This document shows positions 38,878 through 41,293 of a stretch of DNA of 64,000 bases, piece after piece; the stretch's first letter is position 1; every line of letters starts with the position of its first letter. Origin of the DNA: Bdellovibrionales bacterium (lineage in GTDB: Bacteria; Bdellovibrionota; Bdellovibrionia; Bdellovibrionales; JAMPXM01). Location: assembly GCA_043739185.1 (NCBI GenBank), contig JAYUEN010000387.1, positions 15,297-79,296 on the forward strand. The letters are read 5' to 3'. The position numbers and the translations under genes were made by a program. The notes under the pieces are model-generated. The model worked only from the letters and a program-made list of their open reading frames with translations, had not been told where the DNA came from and ran no database searches.

Positions 38878-39012
38878 ATGAAAAAGCTATTTACAATTTT
38901 TGGCAATATCACCCTTATTCTGTCAGGATTTTAGACAGCATTTGCACCCGAAAAATATTTGAGAATGGGTGGCCTTGATGGGCAATCGATTGAGAATGTA
39001 TTTAAATTTTAA
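38878..39012 (+). pseudogene. Interrupted signal-peptide stub (remnant of a secreted protein gene)
   Basis: SD GAGGTG then MKKLFTIFGNITLILSGF*TAFA-PEKYLRMGG...*, with TAG at 38932 inside an otherwise good AxA signal peptide. Confidence 0.4.
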
Positions 39013-41293
39013 ACTTTTTGCACTTCGTCTTCTGATCGGAGTTTTTTGTATGCTTTTCAAAAGTATGGCCTTTGCGACCATAACAATTCACGAAATTAAA
39101 GCCAATGAAGATATACAAACTTATTTAAATAGAACTGCGGGTAACGTTGATGCCACTTCCTTTCGCCAAATCTTAGGCGCTGCTTCAGATTTTAAAGAAG
39201 GCGATGAGAGTATTGGTCTGAGTGCTCATGATGAGGTTTCGCGCCAAAGAGCAAGACAGTTGCTCGCAAACACGAAGGTCCTTGCATTAGTTGAAAGTTC
39301 ATACCTCGGCTCAGATTCGCAAGAGCAAATGATTCGCTCTTCAATAGACACCCCAATTTATAAATCGTTGCGGGATAAAAGCGTAGGCGAACTCAAAAGC
39401 TTTTTGCTGGGGGCTTCTGAGTTCGAGATCAAGAAAATCATGCCGGGACTTCACAGTGATGTAATTGCAGCGCTTGTAAAACTTATGTCAAATGAAGAGC
39501 TCATACAAATTGGACAGAAAGTTTTCAATCCATTGCCAAATAGTTCGATCGGAAAAAAAGGATATTTAAGTGCACGGCTTCAACCCAACTCCTCGACCGA
39601 TCATCCTGGTGACATTCGCTGGCAGGTTTTCAATGGCTGGGCATTTGGCGTTGGGGACCTCATGTTGGGAAGCAATCCGGCTTCAAGTACCCCTGAAATT
39701 GTTCATCGGACGGAATTGCTTTTAAAAGACCTCGTCGAAAGCTTTGGCCTACGAGACGTACTTCCTTGGACAGTGCTTTCACATATAGATATTCAAAATA
39801 CTGTTGAGCAAAAAGATCCGGGCAGTACGCGATTGTGGTTTCAAAGTATTGCTGGGAACGATGAGACCAATGCTGTTTTTGGAACTTCAGCCGCCAGCTT
39901 GATGGAGTATGCAAGAAAGCGAAAGGGCCAAAATTTTGGTTTGTACCTCGAGGCAGGACAAGGATCGGAAGTTACCAACGGGCACAGCAATGGACTTGAT
40001 ATGGGCACTCTCGAATCACGAAAGTACGGCTTGGCGCGGGCTTTAAAACACGCCCAAGGTGGAGAAAAATCTTGGATGGTAGTTAACGACGTCGCAGGAT
40101 TTATCGGGCCTGAAGTCTTTCGTAGCAAAGAGCAGCTGGTTCGAGTGGCGCTCGAAGATACGGTAATGGGAAAATTGCATGGCCTGACAATGGGGCTAGA
40201 TATTTGCTCGACCTTTCATATGCCAATTACTCCAAAGGATTTACGCTGGGCAATTGATCACATCATGCCGGCCAATCCGGCCTATTTGATGGCGTTGCCA
40301 ACGCACAATGATCCCATGCTGAGTTACAACACGACGCCCTTTCAAGAGCATTTAAGAATTCGCCAGAAGTTTAAATACAAATATGATGAAAGAATGAAAG
40401 CGTTTTTTATTAGATTGGGAATAATCGATATTGGCGGAGAGCCAACGGAGCACTTTGGTGATCCAATTTGGGTTTACTATCAATATCAAAAAACTCGTGG
40501 TGTAACTCAGAGTTATTCTGAATTTAAAAAACGGGCAGAAATTGAAATGCAAGAAGTGCAAAGACGTGGAGTGGCTTTATCGATTGGCTTTGGCAAAAAT
40601 GTTTGGGATTTTAATGCAGACCTTGATCGTTCACTTGAAGCTTTAGATGCAGCTGCCAGAGCCAGCATTCATGCCCCGTTAAATGCTGATTTCTTAACGA
40701 AATACTTTCCGAACTCCTTGCAATTGAATACTCAATCTGAAAATCGCGATCAATATTTGTCGAAGCCAATTTCGGGTGAGACTTTGTCCGAATTTTCGAA
40801 GGCGCAACTCTTGAAATTAAATATCGGATCAAGTGATGTCATTCTGGTCATTTCGGATGGACTCAATTCAGATTCACTGATGGATGCAGGACATTTAGAG
40901 CCCTATCTCCAAGAGTTGAAATTGCAATTGCAGAATCGCGGGCTCAAAATTCATCCTGATCCGATAATTGTTCACAATGCCAGAGTGCGAGTTTCCTATC
41001 GCATTGGTGAAGAACTATTTGCTCATTTCACTCAGACGGATCAAATCAAGTCTGTGATCAATATTGTCGGGGAGCGTCCCGGTAACGGGCACAATACTTA
41101 TTCGGCATATCTTGCAACGGCAAGCGTGAGTGCATGGAAAGAAAAAAATCATGACCATGATCGCACCGAACTCGTATCTGGAATTTCAGATACATCTCTT
41201 GAGCCAAGACAAGCGGCTCAAGACAGTGTCGAGAAGATATTACTCAAAACTCAATTCATTCTCGGTAAGCAATGCATCGCTTTGTTCAACTGA
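38996..41293 (+). CDS. eutBC: Fused ethanolamine ammonia-lyase heavy + light chain (EutB-EutC) with signal peptide
   Basis: EutB motifs SARLQPN, FGVGD, FQSIAG, EAGQGS, YGLAR, GFIGPE, MGKLHG. EutC motifs VISDGL, ARV, IVGERPG. N-terminus MYLNFKLFALRLLIGVFCMLFKSMAFA. Confidence 0.88.
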   Translation: MYLNFKLFALRLLIGVFCMLFKSMAFATITIHEIKANEDIQTYLNRTAGNVDATSFRQILGAASDFKEGDESIGLSAHDEVSRQRARQLLANTKVLALVESSYLGSDSQEQMIRSSIDTPIYKSLRDKSVGELKSFLLGASEFEIKKIMPGLHSDVIAALVKLMSNEELIQIGQKVFNPLPNSSIGKKGYLSARLQPNSSTDHPGDIRWQVFNGWAFGVGDLMLGSNPASSTPEIVHRTELLLKDLVESFGLRDVLPWTVLSHIDIQNTVEQKDPGSTRLWFQSIAGNDETNAVFGTSAASLMEYARKRKGQNFGLYLEAGQGSEVTNGHSNGLDMGTLESRKYGLARALKHAQGGEKSWMVVNDVAGFIGPEVFRSKEQLVRVALEDTVMGKLHGLTMGLDICSTFHMPITPKDLRWAIDHIMPANPAYLMALPTHNDPMLSYNTTPFQEHLRIRQKFKYKYDERMKAFFIRLGIIDIGGEPTEHFGDPIWVYYQYQKTRGVTQSYSEFKKRAEIEMQEVQRRGVALSIGFGKNVWDFNADLDRSLEALDAAARASIHAPLNADFLTKYFPNSLQLNTQSENRDQYLSKPISGETLSEFSKAQLLKLNIGSSDVILVISDGLNSDSLMDAGHLEPYLQELKLQLQNRGLKIHPDPIIVHNARVRVSYRIGEELFAHFTQTDQIKSVINIVGERPGNGHNTYSAYLATASVSAWKEKNHDHDRTELVSGISDTSLEPRQAAQDSVEKILLKTQFILGKQCIALFN

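Follow-up and report, generated by a model that had tools for sequence, protein, structure and literature searches.

Whether an adenosylcobalamin (AdoCbl) radical enzyme can be destined for a place outside the cytoplasm is the question raised by one gene in the window, the stretch of 64,000 nucleotides from an uncultured Bdellovibrio-like bacterium that was analyzed here. To our knowledge, enzymes of this class are regarded as confined to the cytoplasm or to microcompartments. This view is explained by the synthesis of the cofactor and its ATP-dependent adenosylation inside the cell, by the need for an ATP-driven reactivase, and by the toxicity of acetaldehyde. The gene is an uninterrupted open reading frame (ORF) on the forward strand that extends from a GTG at 38969 to 41293 and encodes both subunits of ethanolamine ammonia-lyase (EAL) behind a hydrophobic N-terminus (Table 1). 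Read from 38969 or from ATG 38996, it is a real and intact EutB-EutC fusion, an architecture already known from the literature (PMC3543383).

Table 1. Features of the lyase gene and its flanks (positions in the window).
Feature	Start	End	Strand	Basis or detail
Shine-Dalgarno AAGAGG (38867-38872) and 18-codon upstream ORF (uORF) MKKLFTIFGNITLILSGF	38867	38934	+	ATG 38878, TAG stop 38932-38934
Weak sigma-70-like promoter match (TAGACA, 16 nt, AATATT)	38932	38959	+	9/12 positions; just 5' of main ORF
Predicted Sec-type signal peptide, 27 aa, MYLNFKLFALRLLIGVFCMLFKSMAFA	38996	39076	+	Anatomy by inspection; cleavage between 39076 and 39077
Alternative internal start: GGAG (39038-39041), 8 nt, ATG 39050	39038	39052	+	Public gene call
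EutB large-subunit domain, TIM-barrel catalytic core	39158	40450	+	Pfam PF06751, E 1e-124
Inter-domain linker, ~60 aa	40451	40633	+	Gap between Pfam envelopes
EutC small-subunit domain	40634	41233	+	Pfam PF05985, E 8e-31
Single-cysteine tag CIALFN and stop, C-x-x-[LA]-F motif	41273	41293	+	Sequence
Convergent MFS transporter gene, 426 aa	41240	42520	-	Pfam MFS_1, E 1.7e-27

Domain Composition and Active Site

The earlier note had described a single chain in which EutB and EutC are fused, and this description is borne out by an intact substrate site and by Pfam matches far above cut-off. EutB occupies residues 64-494 of the 774-aa reading (417 bits against a cut-off of 25 bits) and EutC occupies residues 556-755 (107.6 bits against 25.8). 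The linker, modelled as helices at high confidence, joins the C-terminus of EutB to the EutC core and stands in place of the N-terminal part of a free EutC. Among PDB entries, the lyase matches 2qez (1.8e-58) and 3abo_A (6e-56) for EutB and 3any_B (3e-8) for EutC. The structure model (pLDDT 91.4) superimposes on 3abo_A with an rmsd of 2.3 A (Foldseek E 8e-32, TM 0.88) and on the EutC chains 5ysr_D and 3abo_B with a TM of 0.77. In the phmmer alignment to 3abo_A, R160, Q162, N193, E287, and D362 (E. coli numbering), which we take from the 3ABO work to be the substrate-site residues of E. coli EutB, are all identical. The same five residues are invariant in 39 members of the clade described below (alignment positions R194, Q196, N227, E319, and D402). 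The NCBIfam cut-offs are missed by both EutB (NF011649, 518 vs 554 bits) and EutC (NF003971, 86 vs 230 bits), so the substrate could differ. These low scores reflect a divergent clade, with the fused architecture further depressing the EutC score. Judged from sequence and model, the lyase is presumably a catalytically competent, AdoCbl-dependent single chain.

Leader Peptide and Translation Start

From ATG 38996, the N-terminus reads as an n-region (MYLNFKLFALR, with K6 and R11), an h-region (LLIGVFCMLF), and a c-region (KSMAFA), with Ala at positions -3 and -1 before Thr28 (39077). By inspection, this layout has the positively charged n-region, the h-region of 8-12 residues, and the small -3/-1 residues of a Sec (SPase I) substrate. 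The predicted AFA cleavage site aligns with the A-x-A sites in the leaders of relatives, and the leader is encoded in frame directly before the conserved mature motif V/T-I-x-x-[IV]-K-x-x-E-D, although its translation depends on the start codon used. The structure model places residues 1-28 apart from the fold, as an isolated helix of low confidence. Two other export classes were considered for this copy and rejected: no N-terminal reading contains the RR or RK-x-F-L of a Tat signal, and the lipobox L-[AS]-[GA]-C of a lipoprotein is absent, the sole leader cysteine (in G-V-F-C) lying in the middle of the h-region.

The in-frame ATGs are located at 38978, 38996, 39050, and 39065; the methionine for which the earlier note gave 39047 lies at 39050. 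With GTG 38969 or ATG 38978 as the start, the leader would differ only by a longer n-region. The earlier note had pointed out that a start past the hydrophobic segment would give a cytoplasmic enzyme, and a candidate of that kind is present. The public gene call (747 aa) starts inside the leader at ATG 39050, which has a GGAG 8 nt upstream and leaves only MLFKSMAFA before the mature sequence, as in a cytoplasmic protein. A canonical GGAG thus precedes ATG 39050, whereas only a directly adjacent GAGA is available as a ribosome-site candidate for ATG 38996. However, the GGAG also forms a Gly-Val codon pair that is kept in the leaders of the orthologues P0002 and P0003, and for this reason it does not decide the start. 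Sites resembling the sigma-70 match upstream are no commoner here than in shuffled sequence, so that match is a lead only.

The uORF lies out of frame (+1) relative to the main ORF. Aligned ungapped with the first 18 leader residues of P0003 (L012; 69% identical), it has 9 of 18 residues identical, a level reached by none of the 14,384 N-termini of the same genome; the P0003 leader is likewise preceded by GAGGG. This resemblance marks the uORF as what is left of a former start of the signal-peptide coding sequence, separated from the main ORF by ~97 nt of extra sequence. With the ancestral start now in an out-of-frame uORF, the leader of the lyase has been rebuilt and might be defective. The extra ~97 nt does not appear to be a mobile or repeated element, as BLAST against the whole genome returned no second copy. 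Against an assembly artefact at the 5' end, a Logan contig from a separate assembly agrees at every position across 5,244 bp and has the same uORF DNA. A tandem 5' duplication, suggested by the 118-nt offset between ATG 38878 and ATG 38996 and a 13-nt repeat at equal offset, is too weak to claim.

A Clade in Which Leaders Are the Rule

A single-protein search of species genomes for close relatives gave no match, but an alignment-based scan did find relatives and places the fused clade in at least 524 species genomes. The earlier note had proposed surveying fused EutBC homologues for signal peptides. Among the 120 closest relatives, 110 have N-terminal Sec, Tat, or Tat-lipoprotein leaders; RR/RK Tat motifs are present in at least 32 of the 120, many of which carry a Cys lipobox and a Pro-rich tether in addition. 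Nine are leaderless, and three of these nine are truncated gene calls. Extending the truncated calls upstream in frame yields the leader MKNKNYLTQTIFGVICMLFSTISVA in P0002 and, behind the GAGGG, a leader running from RKAFAIFG to HTKAFA in P0003, each ending at the cleavage site; in P0004 and P0005 the leaders are present as called. All five closest relatives retain a small-x-Ala site before the conserved mature start. Lipobox flags on the leaders of Desulfuromonadales (LIALACG) were discarded as false positives, the cysteine being in the middle of the h-region.

In the phylogenetic tree, the leader-bearing proteins form a clade with 100/100 support, within which the window protein is nested, apart from both canonical EutB and a leaderless fused clade of the same phylum. 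The hosts include Desulfuromonadales fermenters, Myxococcota, Bacteroidota, Planctomycetota, and others. By the criteria of homology and tree position, the leader-bearing fused EutBC proteins constitute a large, deep, and distinct clade with predicted leaders as the rule, of which no description was found in searchable papers. Because almost the entire clade carries leaders, the hydrophobic N-terminus that the earlier note read as an export signal is very probably a real one, and export of the lyase from the cytoplasm is probable. Given that the clade is also found in fermenters and gliding bacteria, the predicted export is not special to predators and is not a predator adaptation.

The presence of such a clade in hundreds of species, with Sec, Tat, and lipoprotein leaders, implies periplasmic or cell-surface breakdown of ethanolamine; no report of an exported EAL was found in the literature searched (full text). 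The clade raises the questions of how AdoCbl is supplied outside the cytoplasm, how the enzyme survives without EutA, and whether this arrangement is cheaper than a permease plus a microcompartment. Culturable carriers (Syntrophotalea, Archangium or Myxococcus, and Algoriphagus) make the question directly testable.

The C-Terminal Cysteine Tag

The lyase ends in CIALFN, one residue beyond the CIALF that had been reported. This tag is common to the five closest relatives and P0019 but absent from all other members of the clade, and the tagged members are monophyletic in the tree. Across the genome, 15 ORFs have C..[LA]F at a distance of 5-7 residues from the C-terminus, compared with ~0.4 per position elsewhere, and its enrichment at C-termini is ~12-fold. 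Signal peptides are found in ~15 of the 18 plausible tagged proteins. The same C-x-x-[LA]-F motif is present after the cleavage site, at the mature N-terminus, in ~35 further proteins. In all, the tag is shared by about 50 proteins of this genome, mostly with signal peptides. The phenylalanine of the motif is followed by 0-3 residues in the tagged set, and the lyase cysteine by five (IALFN). A tripartite C-terminal sorting signal of the PEP-CTERM, MYXO-CTERM, or CFI-box-CTERM kind was rejected, as there is no membrane helix or basic tail past the cysteine.

By its pattern of occurrence, the cysteine tail is a genuine tag associated with predicted signal peptides in the same genome. It probably serves a later step (attachment, sorting, or delivery) common to about 50 exported proteins. 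Through the tag, the lyase is connected with an as yet uncharacterised trait of the Bdellovibrio-like secretome, and no report of it was found in the literature searched.

Other tagged proteins include a NadD-like adenylyltransferase, a circularly permuted ATP-grasp enzyme, and a type IB topoisomerase. Together with the AdoCbl lyase, these are proteins that are normally cytoplasmic and cofactor-needing.

Genomic Context and Cobalamin Supply

The earlier note had stated that no eutA, permease, microcompartment, or cobalamin genes are nearby. Pfam searches agree for eut, microcompartment, and cobalamin genes, but not for permeases, given that an MFS transporter gene adjoins. This gene overlaps the 3' end of the lyase gene by 54 nt, its last 18 codons lying over the lyase tail. 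The lyase neighbors are YaeQ, a FecR-like protein, DUF899, and MFS. A functional link to the MFS, YaeQ, or FecR-like neighbors was rejected because none is conserved at any of the four orthologous loci, those of the four closest relatives, and the transporter is probably unrelated to the lyase.

Genome-wide, EutA is absent (best match 21.6 bits, under the 27-bit cut-off). The search of the genome for B12 genes that the earlier note had suggested found neither of the cobalamin synthesis genes cobA and cobS and no clear uptake gene: the best TonB receptor scores 86.8 bits against the 599.7-bit cut-off for BtuB, and the sole Peripla_BP_2-like ORF that could represent BtuF scores 26.5 bits, below cut-off, and has no signal peptide. 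There is also no cobalamin riboswitch. By its gene content, the genome is predicted to make no cobalamin. It does contain a PduO-type adenosyltransferase (ATR), TatC, and five B12-binding domains, and an ATR and B12-dependent enzymes without cobalamin synthesis indicate that the cofactor must be scavenged.

Proposed Mechanism and Alternatives

The best explanation, and in our judgment a reasonably probable one, is that a catalytically competent, AdoCbl-dependent single-chain EAL is sent out of the cytoplasm. Translation would start at 38996 (or 38978 or 38969), the 27-residue Sec leader would be cut after AFA, and folding of the apo-enzyme and its uptake of AdoCbl would take place in the periplasm or farther out. 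Ethanolamine head groups would be freed from phosphatidylethanolamine by envelope phosphodiesterases, the exported lyase would convert free ethanolamine to acetaldehyde and ammonium, and these products would enter the cell by diffusion or general transporters. Such a scheme would need no ethanolamine permease, microcompartment, or EutA. The cobalamin would be scavenged, and prey would be the obvious source for a Bdellovibrio-like predator. The prey-specific role put forward in the earlier note, either consumption of ethanolamine from prey phosphatidylethanolamine with the help of prey B12 or production of acetaldehyde as a poison, is hypothetical. The earlier note rightly remarked that export by a Sec route requires the cofactor to be loaded afterwards. 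We know of no precedent for AdoCbl loading outside the cytoplasm, where an ATP-dependent reactivase cannot work.

An alternative is a cytoplasmic enzyme translated from ATG 39050 (or 39065) and working like canonical EAL, with the upstream hydrophobic codons as an untranslated remnant of a leader that a 5' rearrangement destroyed and AdoCbl supplied by the PduO-type ATR. We consider such an enzyme unlikely, though a serious candidate. The GGAG 8 nt before ATG 39050 and the 747-aa call suit it, as do the ancestral Shine-Dalgarno and start that now belong to a separate out-of-frame uORF with ~97 nt extra, the existence of a cytoplasmic ATR in the genome, and the leaderless fused EutBC clade in the same phylum. 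However, the reading frame continues without a stop for 81 nt before 39050, where it encodes a leader alignable with the leaders of relatives, the A-F-A site before the conserved mature start has been retained, and the GGAG coincides with the Gly-Val codons that P0002 and P0003 keep. Moreover, the C-terminal tag accompanies signal peptides in this genome, P0004 and P0005 cannot skip their leaders, and cytoplasmic use would have the support of no ethanolamine permease, EutA, or microcompartment. If the leader is translated, it might also remain uncleaved as a signal-anchor, in which case the enzyme would not be soluble but tethered to the inner membrane on its outer face. The long n-region (11-17 aa), the Lys in the c-region, and the tethering of many relatives by other means (a Tat-lipoprotein Cys and a Pro-rich linker) are in keeping with this, but the A-x-A at -3/-1 is conserved in the closest relatives and an h-region of only 10 residues is short for a membrane span, which makes an anchor improbable.

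The activity of the protein and its final destination allow further alternatives. It may no longer be a lyase but a high-affinity corrinoid-binding or scavenging protein, or it may act on another small amino alcohol. A B12-auxotroph genome with no recognisable BtuB, BtuF, or riboswitch, the sub-threshold NCBIfam scores, and the clade gene of Syntrophotalea acetylenivorans that adjoins a BtuF/BtuC-like ABC importer may all be explained in this way. Nevertheless, we regard a loss of lyase activity or a change of substrate as highly improbable, since the invariance in the clade of every substrate-contacting residue of E. coli EutB argues for kept catalysis, and Syntrophotalea carbinolica grows on ethanolamine with two clade members as its sole reported EAL genes (PMC3543383). 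A more far-reaching version of the preferred reading, export of an active lyase, is that the tag marks about 50 exported enzymes for delivery past the bacterium's own periplasm into prey. The lyase would then be a prey-directed effector that uses AdoCbl of the prey cytoplasm and converts head-group ethanolamine to ammonium and acetaldehyde in the prey. We consider this version speculative and rather unlikely; if true, no AdoCbl radical enzyme before this lyase would be known to act beyond the cell that makes it, and the tag would represent a novel signal for targeting or attachment.

Comparison with Known Systems

Canonical EAL (EutB and EutC of E. coli, Salmonella, and Listeria; EC 4.3.1.7; PDB 3ABO and 2QEZ) shares with the window protein both Pfam domains, the folds, and the five substrate residues, and presumably also the AdoCbl cofactor and the conversion of ethanolamine to acetaldehyde and ammonia. 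However, the window protein is one chain rather than two, is only ~30% identical, adds an export leader and a conserved mature N-terminal extension of 20 residues, and lacks the EutC encapsulation peptide. Whereas canonical EAL works in the cytoplasm or a microcompartment and is encoded in a eut locus, the window gene has no eutA, eutH, eat, or microcompartment genes. The leaderless fused EutBC clade of the same phylum (L032, L036-L039, and L045) also consists of single-chain EutB-EutC proteins (720-750 aa), but these are only 31-33% identical to the window protein and have no hydrophobic leader. This clade groups with canonical EutB in the tree, suggesting an independent fusion.

A fusion is also described for Pelobacter (Syntrophotalea) carbinolicus, whose fused eutBC1 and eutBC2 (Pcar_0491 and Pcar_0467) were called unusual with no mention of a leader (PMC3543383, 2012). 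The Syntrophotalea proteins belong to the same clade (48-50% identical), have fused subunits, and come from a genome that lacks eutA; proteins of S. carbinolicus relatives have Sec-like leaders. In contrast to the window gene, which stands alone, the gene there lies among binding-protein, membrane-protein, and cobalamin genes, and the Syntrophotalea proteins do not have the cysteine tag found in the window protein.

B12-type enzymes outside the cytoplasm are exemplified by the Tat-exported reductive dehalogenases (RdhA/PceA), whose cofactor is loaded inside the cell. Their chemistry is based on cob(I)alamin and Fe-S instead of an adenosyl radical, and their fold is unrelated to that of EAL. 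Their leader is of the Tat type, whereas that of the window protein is Sec-like. For the tag, the nearest parallels are MYXO-CTERM, CFI-box-CTERM (NF041770), PEP-CTERM, GlyGly-CTERM, and the eukaryotic CaaX, which likewise have a single invariant cysteine near the end of exported proteins. In comparison, the tag described here is only 5-8 residues long, has no membrane helix or basic tail after it, and in the lyase places its cysteine at -6 rather than -4. Furthermore, unlike those C-terminal signals, its motif is also found at the mature N-terminus of other proteins.

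Gene Structure and Catalytic Part

The lyase gene of this window probably encodes an active adenosylcobalamin (AdoCbl)-type ethanolamine ammonia-lyase (EAL) that is exported by the Sec route, cleaved after AFA, and located in the periplasm or beyond. Pfam places an EutB domain (residues 64–494, E = 1e-124) and an EutC domain (residues 556–755, E = 8e-31; both in the 774-aa reading) within a single ORF, so the two EAL subunits are fused, as the earlier note had stated. With 43% GC, the gene is close in composition to the window as a whole (42%). Its neighbors encode YaeQ, a FecR-like protein, DUF899, and a convergent MFS transporter, and no eut, shell, or cobalamin genes are found among them. 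Accordingly, the previous description of a locus without eut, microcompartment, or cobalamin genes and without a permease stands for the first three, but a general MFS gene lies directly against the lyase gene. The lyase tail is kept among relatives, and the protein ends in GKQCIALFN, one residue beyond the CIALF ending originally reported.

Features of the lyase locus and related genes
Feature	Position	Strand	Remarks
Strong Shine-Dalgarno AAGAGG and 18-codon upstream ORF	38867-38934	+	ORF 38878-38934
EutB-EutC fusion ORF	GTG 38969 to stop 41291-41293	+	Uninterrupted reading frame
In-frame ATGs of the lyase ORF	38978, 38996, 39050, 39065	+	38996 is the start in the earlier note
Lyase/MFS overlap	41240-41293	convergent	54 nt, 18 codons of each gene
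Protein with the cysteine-tag motif	2633-4090		Listed example
Leaderless fused EutBC	Loci L032, L036-L039, L045		Genomes G171, G207, G161, G077, G062, G130

In phmmer comparisons with PDB sequences, the lyase matched Listeria EutB (2qez, 1.8e-58), E. coli EutB (3abo_A, 6e-56), and E. coli EutC (3e-8). In the phmmer alignment, the window lyase matches E. coli EutB at each of the five residues that we take to form the EutB substrate site (Arg160, Gln162, Asn193, Glu287, and Asp362). The corresponding residues of the window lyase, R194, Q196, N227, E319, and D402 (765-aa numbering), are invariant across an alignment covering 39 clade members. An AlphaFold2 model built from this 39-member alignment has a mean pLDDT of 91.4 and a pTM of 0.87, with low confidence only at residues 1–28 (a lone helix at 3–20) and the last five. 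Foldseek superposed the model onto 3abo_A with a TM score of 0.88 (target-normalized; rmsd 2.3 Å) and onto EutC chains with a TM score of 0.77. The confident model and its superposition on EAL chains indicate that the enzyme part is intact and EAL-like. NCBIfam also recognizes both halves, with scores that fall short of its naming cut-offs (518 vs 554 bits; 86 vs 230). It is extremely improbable that the protein instead binds corrinoids or acts on another substrate.

Start Codon and Leader Peptide

From the ATG at 38996, the N-terminus reads MYLNFKLFALR-LLIGVFCMLF-KSMAFA, with the predicted cut before TITIHEIKANEDI. The leader has two positive charges in its n-region, an h-region of 10 residues, and Ala at −3 and −1, and the cut is in exact register with those of the relatives. 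A start at 38978 or 38969 would lengthen the n-region with no other change. This anatomy fits the signal peptide proposed earlier. The public call of this protein (P0001, 747 aa) begins at ATG 39050, with GGAG 8 nt upstream. A cytoplasmic enzyme made from that start is, in our view, unlikely. The GGAG corresponds to a Gly-Val codon pair conserved in three truncated calls (P0001 and the relatives P0002 and P0003), so it does not decide between the starts. When the sequences upstream of the called starts were translated in the four nearest relatives (P0002–P0005), P0002 gave the in-frame extension MKNKNYLTQTIFGVICMLFSTISVA, followed by STEIQE, and P0003 gave RKAFAIFGSMTISLSAVVQTGVGICLMLSHTKAFA, followed by GPQISE and extending to a GTG preceded by GAGGG. 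In P0004 and P0005, the leader lies within the called protein, with no means of skipping it. Given these leaders and the small-x-Ala site retained in all five proteins, the leader of the window copy is probably translated, on evidence that is good but indirect. A leader that is made and then serves as an uncleaved membrane anchor appears decidedly improbable.

The upstream ORF encodes MKKLFTIFGNITLILSGF and then stops. Nine of its 18 residues are identical, ungapped, to residues 1–18 of the P0003 leader, and none of the 14,384 N-termini of the host genome (G000) has nine or more identities to that leader. This match and its controls indicate that the upstream ORF is what is left of the ancestral start of the signal peptide. 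Relative to the main ORF, it is now shifted out of frame (+1), and approximately 97 nt of extra sequence, which has no second copy in G000, lies between it and the conserved leader end. The leader of the window copy has thus been rebuilt. A public contig that was assembled separately carries the whole relic/leader arrangement unchanged. The distance from ATG 38878 to ATG 38996 is 118 nt and a 13-nt repeat occurs at equal offset, which faintly hints at an old 118-nt tandem duplication of the 5′ end. Because the nearest relative, P0002, also has the short leader type, the short form is probably functional. Mainly because of this leader history, we consider export of the window lyase to be quite likely at best.

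Leader-Bearing and Leaderless Fusions

A search of 5.8 billion proteins found thousands of relatives of the window lyase, and the best 120 are all fused (730–830 aa, 48–73% identity). Their N-termini were read and then sorted with a simple script, which provided the survey of signal peptides among fused homologs suggested in the earlier note. A hydrophobic leader precedes the conserved mature motif (A)VTIxD[IV]KPGEDVxxY[VI]xR in 110 of these 120. RR/RK Tat motifs (e.g., MRRRTFMKSVMLGGSALALASC and SRKDFLK) occur in at least 32, many with a lipoprotein Cys and then a Pro-rich tether. Sec-like scores were assigned to 78 (e.g., MRKRSKVLIALACGMAAALLATTVGA before VTI), including several myxobacterial leaders with long N-termini (MMRRRTFM...) that were counted here because the script covered the first 35 residues only. 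Nine were scored as leaderless, three of which are the window protein and its two nearest relatives, all three with gene calls from an internal Met. P0044, which lacks the anchor motif, was left outside the leader classes.

In a scan of one genome per species, relatives were found in at least 524 genomes, with carriers among Desulfuromonadales, Myxococcota, Bacteroidota, Planctomycetota, Balneolales, Acidobacteriota, and others; of the named relatives, the nearest comes from a Bdellovibrionales MAG (69% identity). A maximum-likelihood tree sets the leader-bearing clade (100/100) apart both from canonical EutB and from another fused clade of the same phylum that lacks the leader (720–750 aa, 31–33% identical to the window lyase). 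The leaderless clade groups with canonical EutB and is thus an independent fusion of the two subunits. EutB and EutC were therefore fused at least twice, and the leader is confined to one of the two fused clades, the other serving as an internal control. Export is clearly not predator-specific.

Of the 401 genomes sampled from the phylum, G000 alone has the close orthologue; those from its own genus, family, and order lack it. In this lineage, the gene is thus rare, with a patchy distribution, which is consistent with gain by transfer or repeated loss. The other 27 matches are canonical EutB or leaderless fused forms (30–38% identity). Leader-bearing EutBC stands alone in Archangium, Roseivirga, and the four nearest relatives. 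In Syntrophotalea acetylenivorans (CP015519.1, locus L018, 5776–13991), it adjoins a BtuF/BtuC-like ABC importer and is co-directional with the following genes, the cluster comprising a Gcw_chp barrel, a PotD-like binding protein, a 265-aa unknown protein, an ABC ATPase, a BtuF-like Peripla_BP_2 protein, and a FecCD permease; MoxR, DUF58, and VWA genes lie beyond. These genes may together form a periplasmic module for ethanolamine and corrinoids.

C-Terminal Cysteine Tag

The window protein, P0002–P0005, and P0019 have one-Cys C-terminal extensions (QCIALFN, SCKSLF, RCETLFK, SCVSAFKDK, SCQAVFSGKNGSFNE, and SCTHVYVK, respectively). Such a tail is absent in the other 114 of the best 120 relatives, and the six form one clade in the tree (100/99 support), a tagged subclade of Bdellovibrionales. 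Among 4,255 G000 ORFs of at least 120 aa, 15 have C..[LA]F with the Cys 5–7 residues from the C-terminus, compared with about 0.4 per position further in, a roughly 12-fold C-terminal enrichment. About 18 G000 proteins have C-x-x-[LIA]-F at the extreme C-terminus, and by inspection about 15 of the 18 plausible tagged proteins have signal peptides. In approximately 35 further signal-peptide proteins, the motif lies 2–6 residues past the predicted cleavage site (e.g., ...AQT-CSELF and ...AET-CEDLF). Among the tagged proteins scanned are an M48-type peptidase, a metallophosphoesterase, a beta-helix protein, several orphans, and a circularly permuted ATP-grasp enzyme. One orphan protein (a 402-aa ORF on contig C506) ends in SCIALFN, identical to the lyase tail from the Cys onward. 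Because its carriers are mostly signal-peptide proteins, the tag is a second, independent sign of lyase export.

The ATP-grasp protein (PF14403 + PF04174; an 807-aa ORF on contig C401) has a signal peptide and ends in RCEDLF, and appears to be another exported enzyme, of a normally ATP-dependent cytoplasmic kind. As for the nature of the tag, a PEP-CTERM/MYXO-CTERM type signal was rejected because there is no membrane helix and no basic tail, and a CaaX box was rejected because the Cys is at −6. No described sorting signal matching C-x-x-[LIA]-F was found.

Cofactor Supply

The host genome (4.85 Mb in 540 contigs, 97.7% complete) has one EutB gene, one PduO-type adenosyltransferase, TatC, and five B12-binding domains. 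Among the last are a 1,227-aa ORF, a 1,085-aa ORF, and two 148-aa ORFs, which from their sizes are taken for MetH-like and mutase-like enzymes. For the B12 synthesis and uptake genes singled out in the earlier note, whole-genome searches found no CobA or CobS (nor EutA), and the BtuB-like and BtuF-like matches are weak, none of them convincing. No cobalamin riboswitch was found in G000. On these results, the host uses B12 but is most likely unable to synthesize it. If the leader is of the Sec type, AdoCbl would have to be loaded into the apo-enzyme after export; the Tat-type relatives could export the holo-enzyme ready folded.

Proposed Role and Comparison With Known Systems

An exported lyase would act, in the periplasm or beyond, on ethanolamine released from phosphatidylethanolamine head groups. 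The ammonium and acetaldehyde would be taken up after this outside reaction, which would account for the missing permease, microcompartment, and EutA. The cysteine tag may mediate a later sorting or attachment step common to about 50 exported proteins. A prey-directed role, as previously suggested, is conceivable at most, and the company of the tag makes this scenario a little more attractive. Taken together, the observation made in the earlier note is confirmed and its interpretation is partly supported.

No report of an exported EAL was found in a full-text literature search, and a 2018 review of ethanolamine utilization is silent on fusion and on export. As far as the literature was searched, export and the tag are unpublished, and the EutBC fusion is already published. 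The genome paper of Pelobacter carbinolicus (2012; PMC3543383) describes eutBC1 and eutBC2 as an "unusual fusion," with no eutA and with cobalamin genes adjoining, and mentions no leader.
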